A stretch of 64,000 nucleotides of DNA from Scenedesmus sp. PABB004 (GCA_014905635.1 JABVCE010000019.1:310001-374000), one strand, 5' to 3'. Counted from the stretch's first letter, positions 1 to 64,000 are shown. Notes: generated from the letters alone by a model not told the origin. Numbers and translations: made by a program.

Positions 1-2925
1 GCGTCCTCCGGCCACTCGTCCTCGGGCATCGTGGCAAACCAGGGGTGGCCCGCGCTCAGCTCGAGCAGCAGGCCGCTCGCCGACCACTCCACGACGAGGT
101 CCGGCATCGAGGCGAGCCACACAAAGCCCTTGGACCTGCGCGCGGGCCGGCAGGCAGGTAGACAGCGGGCGGCGTCAGGCTCGCCCACGGCCCGGCTCTG
201 CCGGCACGGCCTGGCCGCCGCGCGCTCACCTGAGCAGGCAGCCACCGTCGGTCAGCAGGCGGGCCTGCGACGCGCGGATCTCGCGGCGCGCAGCCTCGAA
301 CTCCTCCAACCCCTCCCGGGCCTCGTCGTCGTCGTCGCCGTCGTCGTCGCTGCCATCGCTGCTCGCGTCGGACCCCGACTCGCCGTCGCCCTCGGCCTCA
401 GTGCTGCTCGCCTCAGACTCCTCCTCCTCCTCCTCCTCGTCCTCCTCCTCATCGCTGTCGCCCTCGGGCGGGGCCTGCGCCGGCAGCGCGCACGGCCGCG
501 GGCGGGCCGGTCAAGCGGGCCGGTCGGGCCTCGGCCTGGCTGATGAGACCCCATGCAGCCCGCCGGACCCAGCCGCGCGCGTGGCGCGGGGCCGCGCGCC
601 TGCGTGACGCGCGTGAGGAACGCCTGCTTGAGCAGGCCGAACAGGCGCCCCGGGTGGAAGGGGCGGCGCGCGCGGTAGACACATGAAGCGATGCCATACT
701 CCTCGCTCTCGGGCATGCCGCCGCGCAGCAGCTGCGACAGCGCCGCGGGGCCGCCCGCCGCGGCGCCCGGCGGCGGCAGCGTGCGCAGCAGCGACAGCCA
801 GCCGGGCGCCTGCGCCGCCTGTTGGTGTGCGCGCGCGAGCGAGCGGGGGCAGCGCAGCGGGTGAGTCCGGGGTCACAGGCCAGCGAGATGAGATGAGCAG
901 GCGCAGGCCAGCAGCCCCTAGGCCAGGGGCTCATCACGCACGTCCTGCATGCTGAACCGCCCCGTCAGCAGCACCTCGGCCAGCGGCACGTCGCAGCGCG
1001 TCGTCGGCACGAGGCGCGCGCGCGGGTTGAGCGCGGCGAGCTGCGCGGCGAGGCGCGCGGCGCCGGCCCGCCGCGCGGCCTTGCCCCCGGGCAGCAGGTC
1101 GGTCTTGTTCAGCAGAATGACGTCTGACGTCCAAGGCGGGGCCAACCGCGGCAGGCAGGCAGCGCAGGGGCGCGGAGCGAGCGAGTGCGCGGGGGGTCAG
1201 CGTCGCCCCGGGAGCGGCGCGCCGGCAGCCCTGCTGGCTTAAACCCTAAACCTAGAAACCCAGGGCTCCGCGAGCTTTGCACTAGCTCGCGCTCACCCGC
1301 AAACTCGATCTGGTCAAGGAGCAGGTTGGCGATCGTGCGCGCGTCGCCCTCGGGCACCTCGGCGCCGCCGTACCTGTCGCGGCCGGGCGGCGCGTGAGGG
1401 GCAGCGCCGCGCGGTGCGTCGGGGCCGAGCGAGCTAGCGCCGCGGCGGCAGGGCGAGGCAGCGCCTGGGCGGGCCAGGCGGGCGCCGGGCGGCTGGCCGC
1501 AGCGCGCCTGTCCTTGAGCTCCTCAATCGAGTGCAGGTTGTCGGCGAAGGCGCTCGCGTCCACGACGGTCACGCACGTGTCGAGCCGCACAAAGTCGCCG
1601 AGGCTGAGTTCGGCCAGCGGGTCGGCTGCGGCGGCGGGCTCGGCAGGCTCGGCCGCGCCGGGCTTGGCGTCCCCCCGGCCGGCTGCGCAGCGGCCTTGAC
1701 CCACGCGCACGCGCCGTCGGGGCACGCCTCGGCGTGCGCGGCCTGGTTGGCGCGGATCGCGGGCAGCAGCCTGACCAGCGCCGCGCGCGCCTCGGGCGGC
1801 AGCTCGCTCGCCGGCAGCGGGAACGCAAAGGTCTCGGCCACCGCCATCGGCTCGGAGATGCCTGGCGCGGGCAGGGCGAGAGGCAGGCGGCGTCATCGGC
1901 CGGCCGCGGCAGCGGCCGAGGCGGGCGGCAGGGTGGCAGGAGGGGTGCAGCGAGCGCGCAGGCCAACGCCCGCGCGCTGGTTAGCCCCAGGGGATGATGA
2001 TTGGTGATGTTCAATCACCTGTGCTCTCAATGACCACCAGGTCATACCGCCCCTCGGCCGCGAGCTCGGTCACCTGAACCAGCGGCGGCAGGCGGCGCAG
2101 CGCTCAGCAGGGCCCCCGCACTCGGCCGCCTGAGCCCGCAGGGCCCGTGCGCGCAGCCGGGCCCGCGCACGCGGCGCGGCGGGCGCGGCGTGCGCCACCT
2201 GCAGCAACAGGTCCTCACGCAGCGTGCAGCAGATGCAGCCGCTCTCCATGCTGACCAGCTTCTCCTCAACCTGCAGGGTTCAGGAGCGCGGCGGCAGGGG
2301 CGCGGCCCCAGCCGGCGGTCAGCGACAGCGGGCGCGGCGGCGCCGGCCGCCTGGCGCCCACGTCGGCGAGCGAGCAAGCCTGCCGCCGCCGCCGACCTGC
2401 ACGAGCGCGCCGTTGGTGATGAGCGCGGCGTCGATGTTGAGTGCTGCGCGTGGCGGCGGCGCGGCGGGGTGGGGCGGGGCGCGGGCTGGCCGCAATGGGG
2501 GAGGGAGGGGAGGCGGCGGCGGCGCGGCACGCACCTGCCATGTCGTTGACGATGACTGCCACGCGCAGCCCATGCTTGTTTTTGAGGATGTGCTTGAGCA
2601 GCGTCGTCTTGCCTGGGCGCCCAGGGGCGCGCGCGCGGGGAGCTCCGGTCATGGCGAGGCCCGCGGCCGCGCAGGGCGCGCAGGGCGCGGGGGCCAGGCG
2701 ACCGGCGCGCGAGTGCGTGCGGCGGCGGCGGGCGCCGGCGGCGGCGGTCGCGACGTTGGTGCGGTGCGAGGGCGCCTAGAGCGTGCCTGAGCCGAGGAAG
2801 CCGCTGAGAAGCGTGACGGGCAGGCGGCAGTCCTTGGCGCGCAGCGCCTGAGCGTCCAGGGGCAGGGCCGCAGCGTTGCCGGCCGCCGCCGACGCGGGCG
2901 CCTCGTGCGTCGTGCGGCCGGCCAT
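1..2925 (-). CDS. COG0523/CobW-family G3E P-loop GTPase (putative Zn metallochaperone), multi-exon, 3' end runs off the window start
   Basis: Spliced translation: LPVTLLSGFLGSG|KTTLLKHIL (Walker A), VAVIVNDMA, GCICCTLREDL (CxCC metal motif), VVIEST|GISEP, LDTCVTVVDA, LLLDQIEFA|DVILLNKTDL (NKxD), and CobW_C signatures VYRARRPFHPGRL and LLR|SKGFVWLAS. Apparent 1-nt frameshift in the C run at ~1671-1676. Confidence 0.93.
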
Positions 2926-10807: not shown

Positions 10808-12890
10808 TCACACGAGCGCGGCGGCCGCGACCGCGCCAAAGGCGAGCAGCACCGGCGCGAGGCCGTGCCCGCGACGCGGCGCGGCCGCGGCGCTCGCGGC
10901 GGTGGCGTTGTTAGAAATGAGCCCGGTGTCGCCGTCGTACGCCGAGGCCTTATCCGGCGTGGAGATGACGTCGGTGGAGAGGTTCAGCTCGTCCGGCGAG
11001 ACCTCGGGCCCTGCGGTGCAGGCACCGCGCCGCGTGGACGCGTCAGCGCCGAGCACCGCGCCGCGCGCGCAGCCGCCGTACGTGGCCCCCGGCTGCCCAG
11101 CCTGCCCGTTGCGCGCGCCGCATCCTCGCTCTCCCCACGCACCGTTGAGGATGTTGAGCGTGTAGGCCGAGGCGTTCTCATAGAACTTGACAGTGTTCTC
11201 GGGCGTTGCGAGGCTCGCGAGCACGCGCTGCTTCGCCTCGGGCGAGTCGGTGTCGATGAGGAACGTGGCCTGCCGGGCGGGGTGGGGCGGGCGGGGTGGG
11301 GCGTGGGCGAGCGGCGCGTGCGCGCGGGCGCGCTCGGCCGCGCTCTTTGGGCGCGCTCATCGAGAGCGCTCGCGCGCTGCTGAGCTCACGATGTTGAGGT
11401 CCGACTGCGTGAGGTTCTTCCAGTAAACCTGTGGCGCCGGACGGTCAGCCAGCCAGTCAGCTTAAGCTTGGTGGAGCAGCTGTGCGGCCGCCGTTGCAGC
11501 GGCCACGGGCCGCCGCCCACGAGCGGCCCCGGGCGCCCGCGCTCGGGCGGCCCCCGCGGCGCGGCGCCCGCGGCGAGCGCCGGACCTGCGACGTGTCCAC
11601 CGACAGCGCCTCGGCGAGGCTCTGAATGAAGGGGATCTGCCGGGAGGGAGGGAGGCAGGGAGGGAGGCAGGGAGAGAGGGAGGCGGTGAGTGAAAGCGGG
11701 AGGGAGGGAGGGAGGCAGGGAGGGAGGGAGGCAGGGAGAGCGGGAGGGAGGCAGGCGTTGGGGAGGAGGCTCGGGCAAGCGTTGAACCCGGGGCCAGCGG
11801 CAAGCCAGGCGGGCGCGCCGGGCGGGCCAGCCCCGGGCGCGGCGCGGCGCCGCGCGGCGCAGGGTTTGGGCGAGCGCGCCGCACCGCGTTGGCCTTGATG
11901 TCAGCGATGGGCGAGTCGGTCACCACGTCAATCTGGAGGGGCGAGGCGGAGCCCGGGCAGGCGGCGGCCGCGGTGGCCGAGCGGCCGCGGTGGGTGCGCG
12001 GCCCCGGAGCGCGCGGGCGCGGCGGCGCGGCGCCGCGGCGCGCAGGCGGGCGGTGGCCCCCAGGCGGCACGTGCGCGCGCGGGAGCCGCGCCGTGCCCTC
12101 GCGGGCGCGCGGCGGGCGGAGGCTCACCAGGACCTGGTCCTTGTTGTTGGGCTTGTCGGCCGGCCACACGGGCTCAAAGCCCTCCAGCGGGATCACCTTG
12201 ACTGCACCCTTCTTGGCGCCAGTGGTTGTGTTCTGGCCGACAGAGGTGCTGCCGCCGGCGAGCACCACATCTGGGGGAAGGGGAGGGAAGGGGAGGGGGC
12301 GGGGCGCGGGCGCGCGGGCTCGGGGCGCGCCCCGGCGGCGGCGGGCAGCCGCGCTTGGCGCGGCCTCGGGCCGGGGCGGGGCGCGAGGGGCAGGCGCGGG
12401 GCACGCGCGCCGCGCGCAGGCGCGCGCGGGGCGGCCGCGCGGGCTCGCGCGCGGCGCGCGGTCCGCGGGGCGCCGTGGCGGGCGCGCGAGGCGGGCGCAC
12501 CCTCGGTCTCAATCTTGGGGATGGAGGAGAGGTCAATGTCGATCTTGGCCGCCGCCGCCTGAGCCTCCGCGTCGGCAGCAGCGGTCTCGGCGTCTTGCTC
12601 ACCCGCCGGCGCCGCCGCAGACTTGGCCGTGGCGGCCGGCGCCGCGGCGGCGGGCTTGGCGGCCGCGGCCGTGGCGTTGGCGCCGATGGTGGCGGGCGCC
12701 GTGGGCGTGGCCGTGGGTGCGGCTGGGGGCGGGGGCGGGGGCGGCGGCGCGCTTGATCGGCGGCGTCACCGGGGCAGCGCCGCCGCGCTGCTGCCGGCGC
12801 AACCGCCACGGCGCGCCGGCTGCACCCACCTGCGACCATGTAAAAGGCGAGAAGGGCGCAGAGCGCGACCGGGAGCGCGCGGGGGGCCAT
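10808..12890 (-). CDS. Secreted, probably GPI-anchored cell-surface protein, multi-exon
   Basis: N-terminal signal MAPRALPVALCALLAFYMVA; Ala/Thr/Pro-rich linker; N-glycosylation sequons (NAT, NTT, NLT, NAS, NLS); C-terminus NNATAASAAAAPRRGHGLAPVLLAFGAVAAAALV* is a small-residue omega region, spacer and hydrophobic tail. Confidence 0.75.
11641..11755. repeat. Intronic GGGA/GGCA purine-rich microsatellite
   Basis: Repeated gggagggagggaggca units; reads as a CCCT-rich tract in the minus-strand pre-mRNA intron. Confidence 0.85.
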
Positions 12891-13170: not shown

Positions 13171-16100
13171 ATGGGGCTGCCGGCCTTCCTGACCAAGAAG
13201 CGCGCCGATGGCGCTGCGGCGCCGCCGGCGGCCGATGCGGCCCTCCTGGGCCCCCGGCCGCGGCCCAAGGGCGCCACCGTGCGGCTCCCCATCGAGCTGC
13301 CCACCGACGTCGGCAGCAGCGCCGGCGAGGAGTGGCGGTCCATCAAGTCGGCCGCCAGGGGCTCGCGCGACGGGTGCGCCCGGCGCTGCCGCGCCCGCGG
13401 CCGGCCGCCAGCCTGCCCGCGCGCCCCGCGGGCCGCCCCGGCGCTCACCCAGCCCCCTCGGCTCCGTGCCGCGCGCCGCCGCGCGACTCACCGCCGCGCC
13501 CGCCGCTGCCCGCCGCGCCGCCCCCATGGCACCGCCGCCCCTGCCCCATTCCTGCCCCGCCTGTGGCACCGCCCCTGGCGCCGTGAGCGCAGCTGGAAGG
13601 CCAAGAAGTCCCTCAAGTGGCACCAGTGGCTGGCCGTCTTCTTCCCCTGCTTTGAGTGGATCATCGGGTACGACTGGCGCCGCAACCTGGTGTGGGACGT
13701 CCTCGCCGGCTGCTCCGTCGGCTTCATGGTGGTGCGTGGCCGCTGCCGCACGCGCCCCCGCCTGCCTCCCTCCCGCGCCCGTCCGCCCGCCCGCCCCCTC
13801 CCACGCCGCCCGCCGCGCCGCCGCGCCTCCCCGCCACCTCCCAGGTGCCGCAGGGCATGAGCTATGCCACGCTCGCCGGCGTGCCGAGCGTGTGGGGCCT
13901 CTACGGTGCATTCATCCCGGTGAGGCGCGGCACGCCGGGGCTTGAGCGAGGGCAGGGCTCAGGGACGGGGCGGGAGGAGGGTGCCAGGGCGGCGCGCGCG
14001 CGCGCGCGCGCGCCTGCACGTCCGGCGGCCCCGGCCCCAGCCGCCGCGGGGCTGGCACGAGCCCTGGGCCCAGCTCCTCCTCCTCAACTCAACCCGCGCG
14101 CGCCCCCGTCTGCCTAAACCCCAGGTGCTGATGTATTCGGTCTTCGGCTCCTCCCGCCAGCTCGCGGTCGGGCCCGTCGCGGTGACGAGCCTGCTCATTG
14201 GTGCGGCGGGCGGGCGGGGCTCAAAGGGCGCGGCGCTGGGCGGTCCGGGGCGGCGGGAGCCGCTCGGGCGCGGCGCGGCGCGTGGGGGGCTGGAAGGGCC
14301 TGCGCCGCGCTGCGCAGCGCGCGCGCGCGCGCGCGTGGCTGCGCGCACCGACCGCGCGCCGGCCCTGCCTGCGCCCCCCCCCCCCCCCCTTCAAACAAAC
14401 CCCACAGGCAACGGCATCAAGAAGGTTGTGCCGGGTGCGCACACACAGCGCACGCGCGCACACGCAGCACCCGCGCGCTGCACCCGGCGCGCTGCACCCT
14501 ACGCGCCGCGCCCCTCCCTCCCGCCGCTGCCTGACCCCCCCCCCCCCCCCTCTCCTCTCCCCGCCCGCCCGCAGGCTCTCAGTTCATCACTGACCCCAAC
14601 AACCTCGACAGCTTCCAGTTCACGGTGCGCCCTGATTCGGCCCAGGGTTTAGGCCCAGCAGGCCCAGGGTTTAGAGCGGGCCGACGGCGGGCCAGGGCGG
14701 GGCGGAGCCTTCCGGCGCGCGCGCGCGCGCGCGGCCCGTGCTGAACCGCCGCTGCGCCGCGCCGTGTGACCGCCGGCCGCGGCAGGTCCAGAAGCGCTAC
14801 AACAAGTCGGTGACGCAGCTGGCCTTCCTCGTCAGCATCCTCTACACCGGTGGGTTTAGGTTTTGTGTGTGCGGCGGTTGAACAGCGCGGTTGATGATGT
14901 TGTGTTTGACGCCGCTGCTCAGCACCAAAGGCCGAGTACATCAGCACCTGGTTGAGGCAGACGGGGGCGCGCGCGGGTTGGGCCGAGGAGCCGGGTTTGA
15001 CGGGGAGTGGCTGCGCGGGCGGGCGGGGCGGCGAGGCGGGGCGGCCGCCGGCGCCCCCGTGCCGAGGTCTCCGTTCCAGGACCGGACGCCCCCGGGGAAC
15101 GGATTCTGAGGCGCCCCCACCGCGCCGCGCTGCTCTCACGACTTCACAACCTCCGGCCCGCACAATTGACCGCCGCGCAGCTCCGCGCGCGCGTCCTCGA
15201 CGCCGCACTGGCCCCGCCCGCCACCGGCGTGACCCGCCCATGCGCGCCCGATGGCCCCCCGCGCTCCCCATCGCGCTCTGCGCCCTTCTCGCCGTTTCAC
15301 CCTTCGTCCGCCCCGCTGCCCGCCCCGCCCCCCCCCCCCCCCCCCCCCCGCCCGCCCGCCAGGCATCGGCATCCTGCGCCTCGGTTTTCTCATCCGCTTC
15401 CTCAGCCACCCCGTGACCACCGGCTTCACCAGCGGCGCGGCGATCATCATCGGCATGAGCCAGGTGGGTGCGCTGCGCTTGCGTTGACTCAAAAGCAACT
15501 GTTGTGTTGACTCACTGCTCTTGTGTTGATTCAAACGCACCTGTTGGTTTAGTGTTTAGAATACGCAACGCACGGGCTTGCATGCGTGCCGCCCCTAAGC
15601 CCTGCCCCTCAACCTCAACCTCGCTAAACCCTGCTCCCGCCCCCCGCAGTTCAAGTACATCCTCGGCTACAACGTCCCCCGCCGCGACACGCTGCACGAG
15701 CAGGCGCGCCGCGCCGCGCGCCCTCCCCCCGCCGCCCTCTCCTGCCGCCCTCCTCCCGCCGCCCGCGCCGCCCACGCCGCCCGCGCTGGCCCTGCATGTC
15801 TAAACCCCTGAACCCTGGCCCGCCCGCAACCCTGGCGCGCGCAGATCGCGGTGCTGGTGGAGCACGGCGACCTCTTCAACTGGCGTGAGTTTGCGATGGG
15901 CATGTCGCTGCTGGTGTTCCTCATCACGCTCATGGTCGTCTCGCGGCGCTACCCCAAGAAGGTGCGTGCTGTGAGGGTTTGTGAGGTTGTGTGGGGCTGT
16001 GTGGGGTTGTGCGGCTCAGGCCCGGGGTCGAGGGCTGGCCGCGGAGGGCTGGCCCGGCGGGGGGCTTGAGCCACGCTGCCGCGCCGCAAGCCAGCCCCCA

Positions 16101-19100
16101 GCCCTCTCTCACCCCCCCACACCCCCCACCCCCACACCCCGCAGCTCTTCTGGCTCGCCCCGCTCGGCCCCATGATTGCTGCGCTCATCGGCGTGGCCGT
16201 GGTGGGCGGCATGAAGTTCAACTACCTCGGCGCGCCCATCAAGGTGGGGTTTAGCGGGGTTTAGGCAGCCTCAATGAGGGGGCAGGGTTCAGGGGAGAGG
16301 GCCCTGGTGGCCGAACGGCGCGGCGCGGGCGGCGGCGCGGGCGGCGGCGGGGCGGGCTCACGCGCGCGCGCACGCCGTTGACGCAGCCGGCGCTGACCGC
16401 CGCTGACCGCTGCTGCTGCCACCGCTGCCGCCGCCGCTGCTGCGCAGGCGGTGCTGACCATCCCCCGCGGCATGCCCAAGGTCACCGTCGGCGACTGGTG
16501 CGGCGACGCGGCGGCGGCGCGGCGCGGCAGCGGGGGCTGTGGCGGGGGCGCGCCAGGCGACGCCGCCCCCCCCCCCCCCCCCCCCCGCGAGCCGGCCGCT
16601 TCGCCCCGTGCGCTAAACCCTGCCCCCTCTCCGCATGCTCCGCTAAACCCTCTCTCCCAGGCTGCCGTTTGTGTACGTCGACACGCTCGTCCCGCTCGCG
16701 TTCATCGTGATGATCGTCGACATGCTCGAGTCAACCTCCATCGCGCGGTGCGTTGACCGGCCGTGCTGACCGCGCGTTTCGACCGCGCGCTTCGACCGCG
16801 GCGCCCTCGCCGCGGCGCTGACGCCCCGCCGCCCCCGCCGCCGCCCCTTCAATTCGAATTCGAATTCAAACAGCGCCCTCGCGCGCAAGAACGACTACAA
16901 GCTCAGCTACAACCGCGAGATCATCGGCCTCGGCGTGGCCAACTTCTTCGGCGCGGGTGCGCCGGGGTTTAGGGTTTAGGTTGATGGTTGAGGCGCCTGC
17001 TGATCGACTGATGAGGGGAGGCGCGCCGTCTCGCGCCTCACGCTCCGGCCCGCCCCGCCCTGCCCCGCCCCGTGCCGCGCCGCGCCGCGCCGCGCCGCGC
17101 AGCGTTCAACTCGTACACGACCACCGGCTCGTTCAGCCGCTCCGCCGTCAACAACGCGTCGGGCGCCAAGACCCAGGCGCGCGCGCCGCGCGCCGCACCC
17201 TCCCACCACTCTCCCACCACCCGCACAGCTCAGCCCTCAGCCCCCTCAGCCCCCTCTCACCCCCCTCCCTCGACCGCCTCAACCCCCCGCTCAACCCCTA
17301 AACCCTGCCGCCCCCGCACCCACCTAAACCACGCCCGCTAAACCCCGGCGCCGCAGCTCGCGGGCGTGTTCACGGCGATCATCGTGATGTTCGTCCTCCT
17401 CTTCCTCACGCCCCTCTTCGCGCTCGTCCCCTACAACGCCATCGGCGCCATCATCATCGCCGGCTGCACGACGCTGTTCGAGTGGCGCGTCGCGAAGCAG
17501 CTCTGGCGGGTGGGTCGCGTGTGGGGGGCAAGCCGCCGCCGCGCGCGCCGGCGGGCGGGGGCCGGCGGGGCGCCGCGGGCGCGCGCTGCGCTGCAGGGAG
17601 GGCGCGCGCGGCGCAGCAGCTGCGGGGCACAGCAGGGTTGCAGGCACCTAAACCCCGCTGTCGACCGCCCTAAACCCTGATCCCACACCACCCACCCTCA
17701 ACCCTCCCCCCAGACCTCGTTCCGCGACTTTATCGCCTGGCTCGTCGCGTGCGCGGCGTGTGCTTCCTCGGCGTGGAGCTCGGCCTCGGCGTCGCCATCG
17801 GTGCGCCGCCGCCGGGCCGCGCCGGGCCGCGCCGGGCCGCGCCCGCCGCGCCCGTCGCGCCCGCCGCGCCCGCCGCGCCCGCCGCGCGCGCCGCGCCCGC
17901 CGCCGCCGTTCTTGACGGCCCGCGCGCGGCCGGTCCGCGCCACGAGGACGAACCCCTCCCCTAAACCCTGCTCCTCCAACTCCCCTTAAACCCCCGTCAG
18001 GCCTGTCGCTCTTCTGCTACATTCTCGAGACAGCGTTCCCCCACCTCGCCATCCTGGGCAGCGTGGAGAAGACAGACCTCACCGTCAGCACCAAGCAGTT
18101 CCCCGGCGCGAACACGGTGCGCAGGGTTCCAGCGCCTTGCGGGGCGACTGGGCGCGCACGCGCGTGGGGAGGGGAAGGGAAGGGCCCGTCGGCACGTCGC
18201 GCGCCGTGCTCCCCCGCTGTCGGTGCACGCCCCCGGCGCCTCCCTTGAGCTCAACCCCCCGCCGCCGCGCCGCCGCCCCGCCCCGCTGCCGCCGCCGCCG
18301 CCCCACCGTCGCCGCCCCTGCAGCGCCCCGGCGTGCTCGCGCTGCGCCTCGACGCGCCGATCTACTTCGGCAACGTCCAGGTGCGGGGTTTAGTAGGGCG
18401 CGACGCGCGCGGCTTAGGGTTGAAGGCTTTTGGCGGGGGCGCGGCGCGGCGCGCAGGCTCATTCTTTGCGGGCGGCGCGCGCGGCGCGAGATGCCTTAGG
18501 GCTGCCGCTGCGGCTGCCGCCCTGAACCCTTTGCCATGCTCTCTCACCCCTGCCGCCCCGCTGCCGCAACCCCCCCCCCCCCCCCCCCCCCCCCTCCCAC
18601 CAACCTGTCAGTATCTGGAGGACAAGGTGGACACGTTTGTGGAGGAGGCGGAGCGCGCCGCGCGCGACGACGGCGGTGCGCGGCCGCGCCGCACCGCCTG
18701 CGCCCCCCCCTCCTCGGCGCGGCCACCCGCGCGCCAGGCCCCCGCCCGCACGTCGTGCGCCGGACCGTGCGCCGGACCCCCAAACCCTGAACCCTAAACC
18801 CTGCCCCGTCGCCGCCGCCGCCGCCCGCTAAACCGCCGCAGCCCCGCCCCTGGAGTTCCTCATCCTCGACCTCACGCCCTCGAGCCACATCGACAGCAGC
18901 GGCTGCCACACGATCGGCGTGGAGCTCGCGGCGCGCCTGCGCAAGAGCGGCATCCAGGTGCGGTTTGGTGCGGCGTTGCGGTTTGGCGCGGCGCGGCGCG
19001 GCGCAGCAGGGCTGCTCGCGCTTGGTCGCACAGCGCGCTTTTGGGGTTCAGGGGTTCAGGGCTGCCTCTCGGTCGACGCTCACGCGGTCAACGCTCACTC

Positions 19101-19374
19101 ACGTGCACACGCGCGCCCCCACACACACACCCACACCACAGGTCGCGCTCGCGGGGCCGAACGAGAAGGTGCTGCGCTGCCTGGAGCGGTCGGGCGTGGT
19201 GGACGAGGTGGGGCGGGACTGGATCTTCGGCTGCGTGGCGGACGCGGTGGACGCGTGCGGCACGCTGCCGCGGCTCGTCGTGCACGGCCCCGGCAGCAGC
19301 AGCGAGGGCAGCGACGACCTCGCCACCAAGGACGCCGCCGCCCCGCCGTCGCCGCCGCCGCGGGCAAGGCGTGA
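13171..19374 (+). CDS. SulP/SLC26 (SULTR-type) sulfate/anion transporter with C-terminal STAS domain, ~20 exons
   Basis: [113 protein letters not shown] motifs [11 protein letters not shown] and [15 protein letters not shown]. Apparent 1-nt frameshifts at ~17752 and ~19342, so the stop is 19374 or 19441. Confidence 0.95.
14921..15297 (-). repeat. Inverted composite duplication of ~12845-13142 plus ~14090-14148 inside a SULTR intron
   Basis: The reverse complement of 15000-15297 matches 12845-13142 (e.g. ctcagaatccgttccccgggggcgtccggtcctggaacggagacctcggcacgggggcgcc). The reverse complement of 14921-14980 matches caacccgcgcgcgcccccgtctgcct...caggtgctgatgta at 14090-14135. Confidence 0.95.
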
Positions 19375-45034: not shown

Positions 45035-45995
45035 GCCAAGCGGCTGGTACCTAATCATGCTTTTACTCTAGCTACCCTATGTGCTCTCCACGCGCGCCTG
45101 TCAGCGCGCGCCTGTCAGCACACCTGCCTTTCAGAGCGCCTTCCTCAATTCACTCTCTGCCTTTCTGATTCAGAGCGTTCTTCATCCCATTCCACGACGC
45201 ATCCCCTTGTCTCACAGCAGACCTTTCTTGTCGCACGGCTCGCTTGCTTGCCCGACGCACCTCGCGCGTGCGGCGCTGCGGCCTGCTGCCATGCAGCCAG
45301 CCCCGCCGGCCTGCGCGCCGCCCCGCGGCGGCGCCGCAGCGCGGCGCGCGCCCTGCTCCACCAGTCGGCTGGTAGTGCCTTGCATGCACAGAGTGTGGGG
45401 CGGTGCTTGTGGGGGGGACGACTCAATGCGCACGCCTCCTCTGCCTAGGTTTCACTCTGAATGTTGGTAGCGCCTCACCCCATCCACCGTGTGCCGCCCT
45501 GCATGGCTGCAGGCGGCCGCTGTATTTGTGCCCGGGCGCTTGGCACGGCCCCCCAAACGTCACAGCGGCAGATGGTCTGAATACTCAACAGCGCTGGCGC
45601 GGGGCCGGAAAACACGCCGGCGGGGTGCAGGAACCCCATTTGTTCCCTTCCTTTGTTACTCAACCCACAAAAGGTAACACCATTCCTTTCTCGACTTTTC
45701 CGGTCACGGCTCTGCCGCGCACGCGCAGTGGAGCCGTGCGCCGCCGCCGCGCCACAGCACCCGCCGCCACAGTTGCTGCCTGCCTCCCAGCGGCGTGCAA
45801 AGCCGGCCCCACGCCCGCGCAGCCGCGCACCGACAGCGCCTCCAGCCGGGGCAGGGCGGCCGCAAGCGCCAGCAGCGCCACGCCCTGGCCGAGCGCCTTG
45901 GCATTGACACCCAGCTCTCCAGCCGCAGGCGTTGTTTTCTCATGCCCAGTTCCGGCCGCGCCGACGCGCCCTGCCGCACGCGCCTTGTTTGCGCG

Positions 45996-47512
45996 CCTCC
46001 CGCCCCCACGCCGCCAGCCATCTTTGCACTCTCCGCACGCGCTCCGCTGAGCACGCCGCACGGCCGACACGAGCGCCGTGCGCCCAGCACGTGGCGCGCG
46101 TGTCCGCAAGCGCCCGCCGCTGCCGGCGATCGGGGCGCGCGGTGTGGCCGCCGCAGCCGACAGCTGGGCGCTGCTGCCGACGGACCTACTCGCCCGGCCG
46201 GCTGCCTCTCGCCCCCACAACCGCTACGAGCGCGCCGCGCTCGGCGAGCACTGAGCAGGCGTGCGGTGGGCTGGGCTGCAGGCCGCGCCGCCCGCGCCTG
46301 TGTGCCTTACGACCGCGCTCGTGACCACGCCGCTCGGCGGCCTGGCCAGCCTCACGTCCGCCGCGCTCACCGTGACGCCACCGCTCGCGGGCGCGCTGGC
46401 CCCGCTCGCGGCGCTGCGCCGTCTCCTGTGGCGCTGCGCCTGGCGGCGATCAGCCCCGCCCGCGGGTGGGGCGCCACGCTGGCACTGCTGTCGGGCTGCC
46501 CGCTGCGCGAGCTGGAGCTGGTGTTTGCGGACGTCTGCGACGCCGACCTGGCGGGCGTGGCGCAGCTCGCCGCGCTGACGCGGCTGGACCTGCACTGCAG
46601 CAGGTGGTGGGCCGCTGCTGCCGCCGCCGGGCTGCCCCCGACCTGCCCGCTCGTGTGCGGGCGTGCCACCCTTCGTGACCGCTACACTGCCGACGCCGCC
46701 GCCTGCTGACAGGCACCTCACGCCCGCGTGCGTGCCGCACCTGGCGCGCCTGGCGCAGCTGCGGGAGCTGCAGCTGGCGCACGCGAGGCTGCAGCTCGGG
46801 CCGGCAGAGTTGGAGTGCCTCGGTGCTGCCTGCAGCCAGCTCACGCAGCTGCACGCGGAGCTCAGCCTCGCCGGGGCGGCGGGGCCGGGCGGGCCCGAGC
46901 CCAGGGCGGCTGCGCTCGACACCGGGCTGCTCGAGCTGCTGCAGGCGCTGCCAGCGGACGCAGGCCGCGCTGCGGTGCCGCCGCCGGTCCCCGGCGCCTG
47001 GCCGCCGCTGGTGCACGAGGGCGTGACCAATAGCTGCAGCGTGGCCAACCTGGCGCGCCTGCTGGCGGGCGCGCGCGGCCTGGAGCGCCTCGAGCTGGAG
47101 GGCCTGGGGCCCAACGGCAGCGCCGTCGCGGACGTGCTCGCCGGCGCCGCGGCGGGGCAGCTGACCGCGCTGCGGCTCGCGCGCGCTGCAGCAGCATGAC
47201 GGCCGCCGCCGCCGTGCGTGCGGCACGGCGGCGCACTGCGGCCGCACCTGTGCAGGCTCACCCTGCCGACGTTGGGCTGCCGCAGCACCTGCTCGCGCTG
47301 CTGCGTGGCCTGGCGGGCTGCTGCAGCGTGGGGGCAACGGCGGCGGCGCCCGAGCAGCAGCGCAGCTGCGCCAAATGGAGCCGGTGGGCTGCTGCCTTGA
47401 TGGTGGCGGCGGCGGCGAGGCGGCGCTGCTGGCGCTTGCGGCCGCCGTGCCCCGGCTGGAGGCGCTGTCGGTGCGCGGCTGCGCGGGCGTGGGGCCGGCT
47501 TTGCACGCCGCT
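45996..47512 (+). pseudogene. Second decayed inverted F-box/LRR copy
   Basis: Near-identical to 40200-41716 within tandem unit 2. Confidence 0.85.
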
Positions 47513-48295
47513 ACAGGAGGCCACAGCTGCTGCGACGGCTGCAGTGCCAATGTGCGGCGGCGCTGGGCCGTGAGGCGGAGTGACGTCCTGGTGCTGTAGA
47601 GCGCCACGTGCGTCTGCCGCGCAGCACTGCAGCAGAACGTTGCGGCCATGCAGGGGGTTTCGGTGTGCGCCCGCAGCAGCAAAACAAGGGAGGTCTCTCT
47701 AGGCGCGCGAGACGACGCAGTGCGCTGCTAGCGTGCAGCCGGGCGCCGTGCAGGCTGGCTCAGAGTGAGGTGCACTTTGAGGGCGCCCCCCGTCGCGCGG
47801 TGTGCTGCCGCGGCCGTTCTGCCGCTTGCAATAGCTTGTTCGGCTTGTGAAAAGCTTAAAAGCGCGGCCGAACAGCGGCATACGGCACCGCAGGCGCGGC
47901 CGCAGCGACGCCCGTCCGCGCGCCCAGCGCCCCGCCCGCCCCCGACGCCGGCTCGATGGCTTCGTCGAATGCCGCCCAGTCCATGTGGCCGGCCGGATTG
48001 CGCGCGTCGGCGGCCTGCGCAGCGGGCGGCGGGTTCGCAGGGAGGCGCGCAGCGAAGGGAGTTTCGGTCGAACTCGCAGGCTGCGTGCGCCCGCGGCGCC
48101 CGCGGCGCGTACATAAGCCCCCCCCGCGCCGCTCCCCCCGGCATCAGCGACGCTCTCGCCGACTCCAACGAGCTACCAGCAACCCGCAGCGACGCACACG
48201 ACAGCGCCCAGCGCGCCTAGCTGCAGACCGCGGCACCCCTAGCGACCCGCCTAGCCGACCCCGCGCCGCGCCGACGCCCGCCAAGGCCCCCCGCC

Positions 48296-50818
48296 ATGGC
48301 CCGCCTCGCCTTCACGGCCGCGGCAGCGCTGCTGCTGCTCGCCTGCGCCGCCGAGGCCTCACGGATGATGGTCGACGCCGACCTGGCGCCCTCGGGCCGC
48401 GACCTGCTTCAGACGGCTGCCAACTGCTCCGTCATCGCCAACTGCCAAACCTGCCGCAACCAGCGCAACCCCCGGACCAAAATCTCGGAGGTGGTCTGCT
48501 CCACCTGCAAGACCAACTTCCGCCTCAAGCGTGACGGCATCTCCAAGACCTGCGGTGAGCGCGCGCTCGCCTGGGCGCCTCATCATGGGCACAGCACGTG
48601 ACGGCGCCGCGCTGCCGCCTTGTAGCCGGCCCGCGTGACCCCCCCCCCCCCCCCCCCCGCCGCCGCCCAAAGAGGCCGCGCCCGGCTTCTACGGCAGCAG
48701 CGCCACCCCCTGCGATGGCACGAAGTACTGCCCGGGCGGTACCGACACCGCGGTGTCCTGCCCCACCGGCCTGGAGACCACCGTGGCCAACGCCAAGTCC
48801 ATCGCGCAGTGCAACACCCTCGCCGGCTACGGCCGCGTGTCGGTCCGCGCCGCCAACGGCTCCGTCTCCGTGGAGGGCAGGCAGTGCGACCAGGGCTACT
48901 ACAACGTCGGCAAGAACCAGGCCGCCTGCCAGAAGTGCGGCGCTGGCCTGACCACCGCGGGCACGGGCTCGACCAACTCGTCCTCTTGCAGTGCGTGGCG
49001 GCTGCCTGCGCTGCCCGCTGCGCGCTGCATGCGCTGCCAGCGCTGCATGCGCTGCGTGCGCGCCTGCGCAGCCCGTGCTGACGCGTGCCCCCGTGCGCCC
49101 CCGCCGCCGTGCAGTTGCGCCTGCCGGCTCCTTCAAGGACAGGGGCGCCGCCAAGCTCTGCCCCAAGGCCACGTACAGCAACGGCGGCACCGACACCTGC
49201 ACGGGCTGCCCCGAGGGCCTGACCACCAACGCCACCGGCACCATCGGCAGCAGCGCTGCTGTGTGCACGGACGTGCAGAAGGGCTTCTACAAGTCCGGTT
49301 CCACCGCCGTGCAGTGTGCCATCCACACGTACAACGACGTGGAGGGCGCGGTGGACGCGTGCAAGCAGTGCACGTCCCTCGGGGTGACGGGAGCCACCTA
49401 CCTGAAGACGCAGACGACCGGCGCCACCGGCGCGGCCGAGTGTCTGTTCCCCCCGGGGGTGGACAAGCTTGGCCCGTGCCGCGACGGCATGTACAAGGAG
49501 GGCTGGAACCTCGACGACTGCGTCAGCTGCGGCTCTGGCGGCTTTGTCACCTACAACGCCGACGACGGCACCGCCACCGGCTCCGTGTCCAAGGCCGCGT
49601 GCATGGTGCCCGCGGGCATGGGCCTGACCTCCGCCACCGGCGCCGCCTGGACCATCGGCACCTGCCCCGCAAACACCTACGGCGCCGCTGAGGCCCGCCC
49701 CGCCGTCAACAACGTGCGCTGCCAGTCCTGCCCTCCGAACACCTACAGCATCGCCGGCCAGGCGGGCGAGCTGAGTTGCACGGTTGCCGCCGGTTGGGGC
49801 CTGAACAACGGCGGCGTTGAGAAGTGCACGTTTGGCACCTTCAACGCGGGCGGCAACCGGCTCGCGTGCCAGGAGTGCCCTGCCGGCACGACCACTGAGC
49901 AGGATGGTCAGAGCAGCAACACGTCGTGCGTGGCCAAGGCCGGCTGGGCGATTCTGAGCGGGGCCACGGCGCCGACGCCGTGCGACAAGGGCGAGTACAG
50001 TGCTCTTGGTGCGACCATCTGCCAACAGTGCAGCGGCGGCTACACCACCCAGGAGGCCGAGTCCACGTCCGAGGCTGACTGCAACGGTGCGTGTGCCCCC
50101 GACCGCGGCCCGTGCGTGTGCGTGCGCGCTGTGCGCAGCGCGCTGCCGCTGCCGTAGCCGCCTCACCCTGCCGCCGCTTCGTGTCACGTCCGCAGTGTGC
50201 AAGCCGGGCTACGGCGGCGACAGCTGCGCCCAGTGCCCGGTGAACAGCTTTTCCGCCGGCGGCCAGGCCAACGGCACCGCCTGCACTGGCTGCGCGACTG
50301 GCACCGTCTCGCGCCGGCGCGCCACGGAGAACACCATGTGCCTCGACGAGCTGCAGTCGTTCAGCGCGGACGTGCTCAGCCTTGGCGGCACCGGTGCTGC
50401 GTGGGTTGATCAGGGCGCCATCAATGAGGCTACCTGCCAGGCTAACTGCAAGAACAGTGACACCTGCATCATGTACCGCTTCACCGACGCCGCCACTGAC
50501 ACCTGCGAGTTCCTGGTGGAGGACGCCGGCAACACGCTGGCCAAGCTGGGCCTCAAGGTCGGCAGCGGCGCCGACTACGTGATCCGCGCCTTCCCCGACA
50601 CCGCCACCGCGGGCGTGATGATTGGCAGTGCGGCTGCGGTCGCTGACCAGGACACCTGCCAGACCAACTGCAACGCCGACCCCACGTGCGAGGCCTTCAA
50701 GTACGTTGATTCCAGCAAGCTCTGCACGCTCTCCAAGTCGGAGAACGTGATGGGCGCGACCAGCATGTTCCACGTGGTCGGCAGCAAGCTCGCCAGCGAC
50801 ATTGCGCTTGGCGCCTAA
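48296..50818 (+). CDS. Secreted Cys-rich/PAN protein, tandem copy 3 (intact)
   Basis: Same exon structure and translation as copy 1; C6 run intact at ~49449. Confidence 0.88.
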
Positions 50819-58882: not shown

Positions 58883-61800
58883 TCACTTGCCGCCGTTGGC
58901 CGCGCCGCCCGGCGGCGGCGGCGGCGGCTTGCGCTTGGCCGCAAAGGGCCGCAGCAGGCGGTCGAAGTCGGTCAGCGTGCAGCCGTCGCCCGCGTGCAGG
59001 TCGGCGCGCGGCCGCGGCGGCAGCGTGTGGTTGCCCTTGGCCGGGATGACCTGCGGGCGGCCGCGGCGGGCGCGCCGCACGGCGTGGGCGAGCGGTGGTC
59101 GGCGCGCTGCCGCAGGAGGACGAGCCGCGCCGCCGCAGGGGGGCAGGCCTGCACACCGCGCCGGGGCAGAGGCAGGCCGCGCCGCGCCGCGCCGCGCCTT
59201 GGTCGGGTCGTGCGCCGCGCCGGGCGTGAAGAGGATTTCGGTGCGGAAGCGCTCCGGGTGGCCCGCCGGGACGGCCATGTTCTCGTACAGCCGGATCACT
59301 GGCGGCGGCGGCGTGTGGTTTGGGCGGTTGATAGGGGTTGAGAGGGGGTTCGGAAGGTGGAGAGGTGGGGGCGGTGCAGCAGGGGCGCGCGGCGGCGCCA
59401 GCCCAGCGCGGCTGCTGGCCGGCCCGCCCGGGCGAGAGACTCAAAGGGACGCACCCAGGTGGGTGAGGTAGTCGAGCTCCCGCGTGGCCGCCAGCATGGC
59501 GAGGCCCTCCTCGCTCAGCAGCGGCGGCAGCGGCGCCGGCGGGCCGCCGCCCGCGCTGCCGCCCGCGCCGCCGGCGCTGCCTGCGCTGCCGGGGCGCGCG
59601 CCGGGCTCGCCCGACGCCGCGGGCGGCAGCGCTGCCGCGGCGTCGCTGCCGCCGGGGCGGAGGTCGAGGCTCGCGCGCGCGCTCGCGGTGCCGCCGCCGC
59701 CCGCCGGCGTCGTGCCGCCGCCCGCGCCGCCGCCCGCGCCGAGCAGCTCGTGCCTGCGGCGGCGCGGCGGTGCTCGGCGGTGCGTGGGTCAGCTGAACCC
59801 CGCGGGCGGGGCTCTCAAGCCCTTAAACCGCATCAGGGTGCCGCGCCGCACCTGAGGTGGCAGAGGCGAAGCAGGTTGACCAGGCTGTGCATGTGAGACT
59901 CGCTCGTGAAGTAGATGCGCGTGCGCACGTGCCTGTGGGTGTGTGGCGGCAGCGGCGGTCAGCGGCAGTGGTGGTCAGCGGCGGCAGCAGAGGCGCGGGC
60001 GTGCGCGGCGCAGGCAAACCAAATTCACGCTCCGGCGCACCGCAGGGGGCTGTTGATGTCGCTCGCATAGTTGGGGCACAGGCGGTGCATGAACTCGGCC
60101 TCGCTGTCAAAGTCCCACTCGCCGTCAAAGCCCTCTTCGCCGCCCGCCTCGGCCTCCGCCTCGTCGCCGCTCGCGTGCTCGCCCACGCCGCCGGCGGCGC
60201 CGGCGCCGCCAGCGGCCGGCGACGCCGCCGCGGCGGCCGCGGCCGCGAGCGTCGCGCCCGCGCTGACGGAGCGCGAGACGGTGGCGCCCTCGGCCGGCTC
60301 GCCCGCGCCGCCCGCGCTCGCGTCGTCGGCCGCAGCGGCGCCGGGCTCGCCCGCGCCGGCGCCGGCGCCGCTGCCGCGCCGCGCGCCGCTGTTGCTGCCC
60401 TCGCGCGCCGCGCGCAGCGCCGGCATGCTCTTGCGCGCGAGCGGCGGCTCGCCGGCGCGGAACGGCTGCCCGCCCGCGGCGCCGCCCTCGCCGCCGGCCA
60501 GGCCGCAGTGCTCGGCGTCGGTGAGCGTCGCGAGCGACTCGTCCCTGCGGCGCGGGCGGTGCACGGCGCGCGGGCAATCAGTGTCAGCGGGGTCTGTCGG
60601 GCAAAGGGGCAGGAGGCACGAAAAGCCTGCGAGACCCTGGCTGCCAGCACGCCCTCAGCAGCCTCCCCGCCGCCGCGCACCGCGAGACGCGGAGGTCGTC
60701 CAGCAGCTTGGCGAGCAGCTCGGCCGCGATCTTGGACCCGATGGCCAGCCGCCCGGCGCCGTCCACGCCGTACCTAGTGTTGGGTGAGCGCGGGCGAGGC
60801 GGACGGGTTGGCGTGAGGGCCTGCCTGCCTGTGGAGCTGTGCGTGTGCGCGCGGCTGCACGCGTGGCAGCGGCTGCGGTGGCCGGCCACCGCGGCCCCCG
60901 CGCGCGGCGCGGCGCGGCGCGCACTCGTTGGGGATGACCGCGTCGGCGAGCGCCTTTGCCTCGGCGTACAGCTCCTCCAGCACGCCCAGGCCGAGGTGCC
61001 CGTTGTGCAGCGCGTCGTACTTGGCGCAGTCGTAGATGTCGGGGACCTGCTTGGTCGGTTGGTTGTGCGTGTGTGCGTGTGTGAGGTGGTGGATGTGAGA
61101 GTTGGAGGGAGCGAGGCGGCACGCGGCGAGGGGGCGCGGTGAGAGGCAGCAGCGCAAGGCAGCGGTCCGCAGCACGACTGCGCAGCACTGCAATGTGGCG
61201 GCGGCTGCGGCAGTTGCTGCCCGCCCGCACGCCTCGCTCGCGCCTTGCTGATGTCGAAGCGGCCCTTCTTGCAGAACGACCTCTCCAGCTTCTTCCAGCG
61301 GTCAAACATGAGCAGCAGGCGCTCCCCGCTGCACGGCTGGTCCGGCTCGAGCGCCCAGTCCTGCGGCGGGGGCGGGCGGGGCGCAGGAAGAGACGGTCGG
61401 CTCGCAGAGGGCGGGGCGGGGCGGGCTGGCGGGCGCAGAGGGCGTGCACGTGTGTGCAGGCCGGCCGCAAGTGCCGGCGCCTCACCGCCTGGTCGTGGCT
61501 CAGGCTGCTGTAGCGCCCGCCCGCGCCGCCGCCAAACGCGCCGCCGGCGGTGCCGCTGCCGCCGCCGCCGCCGCCGGCGCCGCCGCCGCAGCCGGGCGCA
61601 GTCGACGGCCGCGGCGGCGGCGGCGGCGCGCCGAGCGCGGCCGCCTTGGCGCCGGGCTGGGCCGCCGCGCCGGGGGCCTGCTGACTCGTCATGCTGGCCA
61701 TACTGCGCAGTAGGCTGCTGTCGCCGCCGGCGCCGGCGCCCGGGTCGGTGCCCGCGCCCGTGCCCGCACCCGCGCCCGCGCCGCCCGCGCCCGCGGGCGG

Positions 61801-64000
61801 CGCCGCCGCGGGCGGCGCCGCCGCGGGCGCGGCCGCCGCCTCGGCAGCGGCGCCGAGGTCGCTCGCGCTCGCGCTCGCCGCGCTCGGCGCGCCGGTGCGC
61901 TTCTCGGCCAGCACGAGCTGCCGCAGCTGCGGCGCGGGCGGCGGGGGCGCGGCGGCGGCGGCGCGGGCTGAGCGAGCCGCCGACGCACAGGTGGCGACAC
62001 AGGGCGCAGCACACACAGAGCGCAGCACACACAGCCCGGACAGCGCCGGAGCGCACGCGCACAGCGCCGGCGCCACTCCGCGGCGCCGCATAAAGCCGCA
62101 AAGAGACGGTGCCTGGCATCGCGGCCGCACCTGCTCGACCATGAGGGACATGAGGTCGTTCAGGCGCCGCAGGTGCTGCAGCGGCGCGTCGGGCATGTGC
62201 GCGATGGTCGGCCCCGGCGGCGCCTCGCCGGCGGCGGCGTCGCCGCCGCCGGCGGGGCCCGAGCCCGAGCCCGCCGCCGCGAGCCCGCCCGCGCCGCCGC
62301 CGCCCGCCGCGGCGGCGACCGCGGTGGCCGCGGCCGCCGCAAACGCGCCGCCGCCCGCCGGCGCTGGCGACGGCGCCGCTGCGCCACCGCCGCCGGCGCT
62401 GCCGGCGCGGCCGACGGCGCCGGGCGGGCTGCCCGGCGGCGACGTGGCCGCCGCGGGCGTCGGCGCGGGCGTGCTGGCGCGGCTGTACGGCGCGAGCGCG
62501 GCGCTCGTGGCGGTCTCCGCGTCCCAGGTCATGGCGGTATAAAGCAGCTGCTTGGCGCGGCGGATGTCCTCGCTCGCGCCCTGCGGCGGGCAGGACGGCG
62601 GCCGCGGCCCGGTGGGCGGCGGTCGGTGCCGGCGGCGCGGGGGCGCCCTTGCCCGCGGCCCCGAGCTCGCACGCGGCCCCGGGCTCGAGCCTTAACCCCG
62701 CCGCGTAGCGCCGCACCTTGCCGAACGCGTCGAGCATGCTGGCGTCCTTGGTGACCAGGCTGACCTGCAGTCATTGGGGGTTCGTGGTTCAGGTGTGAGC
62801 GGTTTCAGCCCGAAGCGACGAGCGCCCAGTGCGCGGACAGGGCCAGCCCGCGCCCGGCCGGCGCGGCGCACGGCGCCGCGCACGCAGCACCGCCGCGCGC
62901 GGCTCACCAGGATGGGTGTGAGGCTGCTGCCCTCGAGCGCGAGCAGGCCCTTGGCAAACGCAGCGGCGGACGCCTGCACGGCGCGGGCGGCGGCGGGCGC
63001 GCCGGCGTCGGCGTGCGCGGGCGCGGGCGGAGCGGGCCCTCCCGGCTGCCAATCAGGCCTAAACCCTGAACCCCCAGCCTCTGTCTCGCCTGCACGCGGC
63101 CCTCGTCGCTGCTGTAGATCTTGAGGTCGTGGCGGTACGTCGAGTGCAGGCGCAGCAGGCCGCCGCCGGTGGAGCCGTACCTGGCGGGGTTCAGGGTTGA
63201 GGGGCGGCGGCGCGGCGTGAGAGGGCGGGCAGCTGAGGCGGCGGCGAACGGGGCCAGCCGCGAGCAGGGGGCCGGAGCATGCGCCCTTCTCTTGCTCTTC
63301 TCACCGCGGGTACATGACCAGTCGGAAGACCTTGCCCAGCTCCTCCGCCTGATGACACAGATGGTGGTGGCGGGCGGTCAAAGTTGGTTTGTGGGTTCGA
63401 AGAAACAAAAGGATTGCCAAGCGCAGGGCAGGTGCGCGCGACGACCAACCCCTAGACCCGCCAGCCCCAGCCCCGCGGCGCACGCCCCGCCGCCGCACCT
63501 GGGCGCGGCCCGCGTGCGTGAGCACGCCGCCGTACTTCAAGATGAGCAGCACCTCCTCCAGCTGCCCCTGCGGCGCCGCCGCCGCCGCCTCCTTGCCGCC
63601 CCCGCCGCCTGCTCCCCATCGGCCGCAGGCGCCGCCGCCGCCGCCGCGTCGCCGGCGCCGGCGGCGCCGGCGCCGGTGGCGGGCGGCGCCGCCGCGTCTG
63701 GCACGGTGCTCCAGATGAGGGGCTTGAGCTGGACCTTGCGGTTGATACCGCTGAATTGGCCGCCCTGGCGGCGGCGCGGCAGAGGGGGGGGGGGGGAGTT
63801 GGGCGCGCGGGTGAGCCAGAGGCGCCTCTCAGGGCCCGCTCCTGCAGGGAGCCGCCTGGTTGCGCCCGCTCGCCGCCCCAGCCGCAAGCCTCCGGGGCCC
63901 TCGGGCCCGGACGCGAAACCAGTCGTTGCTTAAACCCCGCGCGGTCGCAGCTGGCCTAAACCCCGCGCACCTGCTCGAGCACGGTGCGCACGATCTGCAG
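58883..64000 (-). CDS. VIP1: Inositol pyrophosphate synthase VIP1/PPIP5K, C-terminal histidine-phosphatase-like region; 5' part outside the window
   Basis: [130 protein letters not shown]. Apparent frameshift at ~63600. Confidence 0.96.

Follow-up and report, generated by a model that had tools for sequence, protein, structure and literature searches.

Telomere-like motifs in introns of a 64-kb window of the alga Scenedesmus sp. PABB004 and their orientation relative to splice sites

A 64,000-nucleotide stretch of the genome of the alga Scenedesmus sp. PABB004 (GCA_014905635.1, JABVCE010000019.1:310001-374000; hereafter the window) has a G+C content of 76%, and short words resembling the telomere repeat TTTAGGG stand out in it. 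An earlier note on this DNA placed these words mostly in introns, with the G-rich strand following donors (GGGTTYAG in transcript sense, here the G-form) and the C-rich strand preceding acceptors (CTRAACCC, the C-form). The locus therefore raises the question of how telomere-like words came to lie within introns in opposite orientations at the two ends, and whether splicing makes use of them. We confirmed the observation itself, and we weigh below the processes that might account for it.

Abundance and compartment of the motif

On the two strands of the window we found 37 matches to GGGTTYAG/CTRAACCC where 1.32 are expected, and the maximum in 100 shuffles was five. The exact heptamer TTTAGGG occurs nine times, compared with an expectation of 0.59. 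Chance or composition as the source of the motif is ruled out by the shuffles and by the expectation from local composition. In addition, 27 of the 35 TTTAG pentamers in the window fall inside GGGTTTAG, which indicates that the motif is a discrete word and no by-product of composition. An unbiased screen of 7-mers recovered the same word, with GGGTTTA and GGTTTAG within the top three words of intron 5' halves, and TAAACCC and CTAAACC ranking right behind poly-C in intron 3' halves.

Introns were annotated from the sequence using a hidden Markov model (HMM) with 3-periodic Markov states and learned splice-site matrices, set with a length penalty and with GC donors allowed. This produced 19 non-overlapping gene models and a working set of 116 unique introns totaling 17.2 kb; those outside the sulfate permease and VIP1 genes are predictions only. 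The 21 sulfate permease introns, two of which are GC-AG, come from a spliced alignment of the Scenedesmus acutus transporter (P0009). The HMM reproduced 17 of the 21 exactly at first and 19 with GC donors allowed; its first version had all 21 acceptors correct, and the four missed donors belonged to introns with correct acceptors. For VIP1, spliced alignment of a Scenedesmus homologue (P0011) gave seven introns, six of which are identical in the HMM.

Nearly all copies of the motif are intronic (36 of 37), as had been proposed. Exons (31.5 kb) contain none and non-genic DNA (14.8 kb) contains one, and the numbers expected from local composition are 0.61 in introns, 1.26 in exons, and 0.60 in non-genic DNA. 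This corresponds to enrichment of approximately 59-fold in introns versus approximately 1.7-fold in non-genic DNA. The 14 G-forms observed in 5' halves compare with approximately 0.2 after shuffling in blocks of 15-40 nt, and the 19 C-forms observed in 3' halves with approximately 0.3. All of the sites listed in the earlier note are present, displaced by no more than 1-3 nt, and the exceptional G-form that it reported beside the TBC gene is the sole non-intronic copy (22669-22676), located 10 nt beyond the predicted coding end.

Several candidate identities were rejected. A structured RNA family found no support, with zero Rfam matches within the window, and an extended repeat family was discarded because similarity among 48 aligned contexts ends at approximately 12 nt. 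A premature-stop role for the TAG of donor-proximal G-forms was dropped, the TAG being in frame in two of five permease introns that were read by hand.

Orientation and intron skew

In transcript sense, the 5' half of the intron holds 14 of 16 G-forms (median relative position 0.14), and the 3' half holds 19 of 20 C-forms (median 0.74); the Fisher P of this polarity is 4e-7. The arrangement of G-forms near donors and C-forms near acceptors described previously is therefore upheld. In minus-strand genes, four G-forms lie at 0.05-0.56 and two C-forms at 0.92-0.93, and these six copies obey the polar rule. This flip had been read as orientation turning with transcription. However, a G-form followed by a C-form is its own reverse complement, and the minus-strand genes thus show a tie to intron borders and give no independent sign of a link to the direction of transcription.

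The introns are themselves skewed, changing from a weak excess of G to a strong excess of C. Their GC skew starts at +0.19 in the first tenth and falls to between -0.27 and -0.38 over the last three tenths; the last third is C-rich in 98% of introns and the first third is G-rich in only 50%. When orientation was predicted from the 30 nt on each side of a copy, with motif copies masked, flank composition predicted the observed orientation with a mean probability of 0.78. Counted per copy, the polar rule holds in 33 of 36 cases versus 28.3 expected from the flanks (P 0.012), and counted per cluster it holds in 23 of 26 versus 20.9 expected (P 0.17). The orientation of the motif is essentially what local skew predicts, and degenerate copies may add to that skew. 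The earlier note had held that a lack of strand bias beyond the general skew of introns would speak against its proposal, and this is largely what we observe.

Two other skew-related features were noted. Tracts of (GC)5-11 at 13992-14013, 14317-14335, 14715-14733, and 16361-16371 lie at the switch from G-rich to C-rich sequence in permease introns, where the left arm has a skew of +0.16 to +0.40 and the right arm -0.07 to -0.48. These introns are palindrome-like, and their folds are no stabler than those of local shuffles. Poly-C runs of 29-39 nt, which apparently act as the pyrimidine tract, occur just upstream of permease acceptors (15319-15357 and 18570-18598) and in the first intron of a PAN-domain gene (37049-37078).

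Distribution among genes and catalogue of sites

The motif is present in 22 of the 116 introns, comprising 14 of 21 in the sulfate permease gene and eight of 95 elsewhere (Fisher P 5e-8), despite similar base composition in permease and other introns. The permease gene alone carries 25 of the 36 intronic copies. With 94 introns lacking the motif and such uneven distribution, the suggestion that it forms a general intron-definition code is not supported.

Gene identities are backed by Pfam matches, in each case on single exons, as follows.

1-2.9 kb, minus strand: CobW gene
13.2-19.4 kb, plus strand: sulfate permease gene with STAS domain
20.5-22.7 kb, plus strand: TBC RabGAP gene
23.7-25.1 kb, minus strand: GidB gene
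26.0-30.9 kb, plus strand: AP2-domain gene
33-51 kb, both strands: Ephrin_rec_like/PAN genes
54.1-54.9 kb, plus strand: Tim10 gene
56.9-58.4 kb, plus strand: CSN7 gene
58.9-64 kb, minus strand: VIP1-like histidine phosphatase gene

An exon translation from the window is 100% identical to a protein named SULTR2 (Scenedesmus sp. PABB004), which places the organism among chlorophycean green algae. A metagenome scan with a sulfate permease exon returned five loci from distant relatives (41-65% identity), which were not used. The telomere-like sites are listed below; forms are given as read in the transcript.

1238-1260, minus strand: CobW intron between exons 1298-1372 and 942-1121; exact TTTAGGG on the minus strand at 1244-1250, a G-form approximately 45 nt from the donor
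2276-2283, minus strand: CobW intron 2271-2396; C-form 5 nt from the acceptor; adjoining exons match Pfam cobW
14114-14121, plus strand: permease intron 13920-14124, from spliced alignment; C-form 3 nt from the acceptor
14645-14674, plus strand: permease intron 14625-14785; G-forms at donor distances of 20 and 42 nt, and the 7-mer CTGAACC at 14741
14852-14859, plus strand: permease intron 14850-15362; G-form fused to the donor (GTGGGTTTAG)
15624-15631, plus strand: permease intron 15464-15649; C-form 18 nt from the acceptor, predicted to pair with a 7-mer G-form at 15546
15800-15815, plus strand: permease GC-AG intron 15704-15844; two adjacent C-forms
16247-16292, plus strand: permease intron 16244-16447; G-forms at donor distances of 3, 13, and 41 nt
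16613-16650, plus strand: permease intron 16498-16660; C-forms at acceptor distances of 40 and 10 nt
16965-16979, plus strand: permease intron 16957-17102; two tandem G-forms, with the longest perfect telomere-register run of the window (16 nt)
17298-17345, plus strand: permease GC-AG intron 17177-17356; two 8-mer C-forms and one 7-mer
17648-17677, plus strand: permease intron 17510-17713; two C-forms
17961-17968, plus strand: permease intron 17801-18000; C-form 32 nt from the acceptor
18386-18529, plus strand: permease intron 18381-18611; G-form 5 nt from the donor (18386) and C-form (18522), the sole intron with both 8-mers
18787-18834, plus strand: permease intron 18676-18841; a tandem pair of C-forms, with a 7-mer close to the acceptor
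19044-19059, plus strand: permease intron 18958-19141; a pair of mid-intron G-forms (GGGTTCAG; relative positions 0.49 and 0.53)
21451-21458, plus strand: TBC/RabGAP intron 21449-21562; G-form fused to the donor
22669-22676, plus strand: the only non-intronic copy, past the predicted TBC coding end
29193-29230, plus strand: predicted intron 29126-29281 in a predicted part of the AP2-domain gene model; two C-forms
29782-29825, plus strand: predicted intron 29692-29853 of the AP2-domain gene; degenerate array of 5.6 copies with an 8-nt period (ACCCCTAA) and two C-forms inside
59793-59800, minus strand: VIP1-like intron 59754-59851; G-form at relative position 0.56
62786-62792, minus strand: VIP1-like intron 62765-62907; 7-mer C-form 21 nt from the acceptor
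63059-63073, minus strand: VIP1-like intron 62974-63089; G-forms at donor distances of 16 and 23 nt
63187-63194, minus strand: VIP1-like intron 63181-63304; C-form 6 nt from the acceptor
63956-63963, minus strand: VIP1-like intron 63765-63970; G-form 7 nt from the donor

The public protein model for this region (P0001; 1085 amino acids; 13171-22659) contains Sulfate_transp, STAS, and RabGAP-TBC domains and joins the permease to the downstream TBC gene. It also retains introns, 14125-14307 and 17779-17934 among them. Alignment of the S. acutus protein favors 21 introns of shorter length, with the permease gene ending on its own near 19.4 kb. Because the public model fuses two genes and retains introns, intron statistics of this genome need RNA-verified models. 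The S. acutus alignment further requires a frameshift inside a permease exon at approximately 17754, which is either an assembly indel or a real difference. The two GC-AG introns (15704-15844 and 17177-17356) are supported by homology, and both begin CAG|GCGCGC. GC donors were predicted by the gene finder in 14 of 116 introns, with GCGCGC in eight, which would be an unusually high share if real.

Consensus, register, and variants

The extended consensus, c[a/g]GGGTTYAGgg, is common to both orientations. Position -2 is C in nine of 16 G-forms and 11 of 20 C-forms, and position +8 is G in 12 of 16 and 14 of 20, respectively. Since the flanks of the two forms are alike, they appear to represent one double-stranded motif. 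Among the 37 pooled copies, position -1 is A in 19 and G in 16 and is never C, and position -2 is C in 21, which is out of telomere register; such flanks may fit a fixed start of the motif. Perfect telomere-register runs extend for 8-16 nt (median nine), and short tandem or degenerate arrays are present at 16965-16979, 18787-18801, and 29782-29825.

Among the seven circular permutations of one repeat unit plus one nucleotide, GGGTTTAG is the commonest (27 copies), and TAGGGTTT, the register of the plant telo box, accounts for four. The register of the motif is the complement of CTAAACCCT, a 9-mer that occurs 14 times in the window and is given as the template of the Arabidopsis telomerase RNA (AtTR) in Fajkus et al. 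2019 (PMC6765143). Telomeres of Sphaeropleales, a Coelastrella species included, are reported to consist of TTTAGGG (PMC3318450). One-mismatch variants of the motif are also over-represented, with 35 observed versus approximately seven expected.

Origin and possible function

The explanation that we consider best, and hold tentatively, is that each motif copy is a DNA element derived from a single telomere unit and retained in introns in the orientation that skew and splicing allow. Such an element would comprise one TTTAGGG unit with 1-4 further nucleotides, its register complementary to that of the Arabidopsis-type template CTAAACCCT. Copies would have arisen at the DNA level, either when telomerase added short templated stretches as breaks in transcribed DNA were repaired or through local slippage of such additions, and priming would be on the locally G-rich strand. 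A single pass over a CTAAACCCT-type template would yield AGGGTTTAG; that template is a land-plant RNA and may not be that of the alga. Copies would survive only in introns, which tolerate insertions, and the retained orientation would be the one that avoids AG or branch-like signals where splicing would suffer. In the observed layout the G-rich strand is in sense just past the donor and the C-rich strand is in sense within the C-rich tract preceding the acceptor. Patchy spread, as in 14 of 21 permease introns versus eight of 95 others, is as expected for insertion or expansion events. There are also proposals of a related kind: a telomerase-based origin has been put forward for single-unit telo boxes (PMC3022908), and telomeric repeats inserted at break sites with in-register nucleotides are described in PMC7215372.

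Several observations weigh against this explanation. The number of copies expected in non-genic DNA (0.60) is about that expected in introns (0.61), yet one copy is found in the former and 36 in the latter, so a purely neutral DNA process needs an added assumption, which might be transcription-linked breaks or constraint on promoters and untranslated regions (UTRs). A G-form lies within 20 nt of the donor in eight of 10 G-form introns versus 3.1 expected from composition (P approximately 0.001, uncorrected for multi-copy introns). Of the one-mismatch variants, 21 of 35 alter position 6 only (GGGTTNAG/CTNAACCC), whereas neutral decay would spread them, and CTCAACCC is strand-specific, with nine C-form copies versus one G-form. 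Finally, all of the evidence comes from one 64-kb window in which a single gene supplies 25 of 36 copies.

The scarcity of non-genic copies, the proximity of G-forms to donors, and the variation at position 6 lend support to the main alternative, a possibility to which we give rather less credence, in which the motifs are RNA-level splicing elements in a subset of introns, read by strand-specific telomere-binding proteins. Here the donor-proximal GGGUUUAG is a candidate intronic enhancer or regulator bound by a G-strand-telomere-binding protein. Proteins of the hnRNP type, or with a Gbp1-like RNA-recognition motif (RRM), are candidate binders of single-stranded G-strand telomere sequence. At the other end of the intron, CUNAACCC is a candidate branch-site-like or C-tract-binding element. 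Such a role is consistent with the confinement of 36 of 37 copies to introns (approximately 59-fold versus 1.7-fold enrichment), with the eight introns that have a G-form close to the donor, and with the nine-to-one strand bias of CTCAACCC. Furthermore, 12 of 20 C-forms have no more than one of eight bases paired in the predicted fold. A green-alga POT1 is reported to bind GGGTTTAGGGT best as single-stranded DNA (PMC2794166), so such 11-mers can be recognized by protein, although the ligand there is DNA. On the other side, 94 of 116 introns do without the motif, introns may carry several copies, and the 12-mer consensus, being shared by both orientations, suggests a single double-stranded motif rather than two independent RNA signals. 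The variant pattern at position 6 and the strand-specific CTCAACCC keep an RNA-level component open.

The proposal that CTAAAC serves as the branch site belongs to this RNA-level explanation, and it fares weakly. Variation is concentrated at the N of CTNAACCC, consistent with the free position in a branch box of the yUnAy type; CTNAAC itself has one A more than yUnAy. Pairing of CTRAAC with U2, as judged from established U2-branch pairing, would fit only with a two-base bulge. A branch box is expected once per intron and within a narrow range of distances from the acceptor, and the C-forms depart from both: they occur 3-82 nt upstream, seven of 13 C-form introns have two copies, and five of 20 copies lie within 11 nt of the acceptor and are thus too close for a branch site. 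For the words CTGAC (24 copies) and CTCAC (46 copies), the peak lies 30-50 nt upstream of acceptors. CTRAC or CTCAC is present in five of 14 introns that have CTRAAC in the last 65 nt and in 39 of 102 that lack it; being equally frequent with and without CTRAAC, these usual branch candidates do not appear to be substituted by it, and the words are not mutually exclusive. A search by expectation maximization for a general 3' intron motif returned only a weak gCTG[A/C]CC.

A more speculative combination, which we regard as doubtful, is that this alga, in whose DNA of approximately 76% GC words containing A/T are rare, has come to use both telomere-repeat strands as RNA signals, GGGUUUAG past the donor and CUNAACCC before the acceptor, which would mark or regulate the introns of particular genes and provide gene-specific splicing control derived from telomerase-templated insertions. 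In that case, GGGUUUAG and CUNAACCC may be read by G-strand-binding and C-strand-binding telomere proteins. Of the ideas raised in the earlier note, footprints of telomerase type kept in splice-compatible orientation and binding by a telomere-strand-binding factor are both still viable.

It is unlikely that the copies are double-stranded DNA binding sites, similar to telo boxes and recognized by a Myb-type factor, that exert chromatin or transcriptional control from inside certain genes, the sulfate transporter gene being one, with orientation sorted simply by intron skew and splicing constraints. The gene specificity of the motif (14 of 21 versus eight of 95 introns) and the independence of its extended form from orientation agree with this idea, and plant telo boxes are described as cis elements found in first introns (PMC3022908). 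However, the register differs from that of the plant telo box (AAACCCTA and its complement occur four times, GGGTTTAG 27 times), the copies are spread along the whole gene rather than gathered at its 5' end, and the promoter-side non-genic DNA of the window has none.

We consider it very improbable that the motifs are what remains of terminal inverted repeats from an intron-generating transposon, either introner-like or a miniature inverted-repeat transposable element (MITE), with ends GGGTTTAG...CTAAACCC. Six of 16 G-forms start 2-8 nt from the donor, five of 20 C-forms lie 3-11 nt from the acceptor, and the GTG...CAG intron ends together with the motif create near-perfect inverted termini, but similarity among the 48 aligned contexts is limited to about 12 nt, internal or multiple copies are frequent, and no intron carries terminal copies at both ends.

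The least probable explanation is that a 5' G-form pairs with a 3' C-form in intron-bridging helices that draw the splice sites together, a role suggested by the exact reverse complementarity of forms at opposite intron ends and by precedent in the (AC)m-(GT)n introns of zebrafish and GGG/CCC introns of humans described in PMC4691745; in this window it is largely refuted. Both 8-mers share one intron in one of 113 folded introns (odds ratio 0.96, P 1.0), and both forms as 7-mers do so in three of 113 (P 0.20). Permease introns divide into four with G-forms only, seven with C-forms only, three with both, and seven with neither, and 3.3 with both are expected if the forms are independent. Folding of the 113 introns predicted pairing between the two forms in a single case (15464-15649, through its 7-mer G-form), and gave no extra stability relative to 20-nt block shuffles (mean z +0.13; z below -2 in just 5% of introns). 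The pairing of the two forms suggested previously accordingly receives no support.

Relation to known systems

The motif resembles the plant telo boxes of Gaspin, Rami & Lescure 2010 (PMC3022908), which are described there as a telomere unit plus approximately one nucleotide, scattered in genes, over-represented, and depleted in coding sequence, and for which an origin through telomerase is likewise a proposal. The idea of a unit plus one nucleotide holds for the alga, but the telo-box register AAACCCTA(A) does not: the copies here are GGGTTTAG/CTAAACCC (27) and not AAACCCTA/TAGGGTTT (four). Plant telo boxes concentrate upstream of genes, in 5' flanks and 5' UTRs, and in introns one and two, typically of translation-related genes, whereas the algal motif occupies introns all along the gene and also switches orientation within them.

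A second likeness is to the short interstitial telomeric sequences (ITSs) at double-strand breaks of mammals (PMC7215372), which are presented as internal, telomere-like, intolerable in exons, and connected with telomerase. Internal tracts in telomere register are likewise found here, as the short perfect runs and the one degenerate 5.6-copy array. The mammalian tracts are reported to span few to hundreds of units and to be intronic only in proportion to intron content (31%). In contrast, the algal runs, at 8-16 nt when perfect, are far shorter than typical ITSs and are enriched approximately 59-fold in introns and not in non-genic DNA.

With respect to the Arabidopsis telomerase template reported in PMC6765143, the C-form consensus CTAAACCCT (14 copies) is identical, but AtTR belongs to a land plant and not to this alga. 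The intron-bridging repeats described in PMC4691745 share complementary 5' and 3' motifs, a G-rich start and a C-rich end, and short GC-rich introns, but the co-occurrence within one intron and the extra stability given there as their defining properties were not found here. We found no earlier description of orientation-polarized telomere-like motifs in introns in open-access papers and bioRxiv.

If the pattern extends genome-wide, it would be a clear case of words derived from the telomere repeat that are confined to introns and sorted by orientation within units of approximately 150 nt. Should these be telomere-derived DNA elements, they would record the activity of telomerase or repair inside transcribed genes, with splicing as a filter; should they instead be recognized in RNA or chromatin, they would constitute a splicing or chromatin signal built from telomere sequence. 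Whether intronic telomeric repeats affect splicing is a question raised by the authors of PMC7215372. Because the motif is conspicuous against an extreme GC background, that question would be directly testable in this alga.

Other repeats in the window

A tandem repeat with a unit of approximately 5.8 kb occupies 36706-50818. Each of its three copies carries a gene for a cysteine-rich Ephrin_rec_like/TNFR-like and PAN-domain protein, followed in two of the three by a small gene lacking a Pfam match. A related Ephrin_rec_like/PAN gene lies upstream on the minus strand (33057-35946). The GC content of the repeat region is lower (67-72%), and it contains no telomere-like copies. Two simple repeats were also noted: a (GGGA)28 microsatellite at 11642-11755, inside the span of a minus-strand gene model, and a perfect (GCT)21 repeat at 25273-25336, in non-genic DNA between the GidB and AP2-domain genes.

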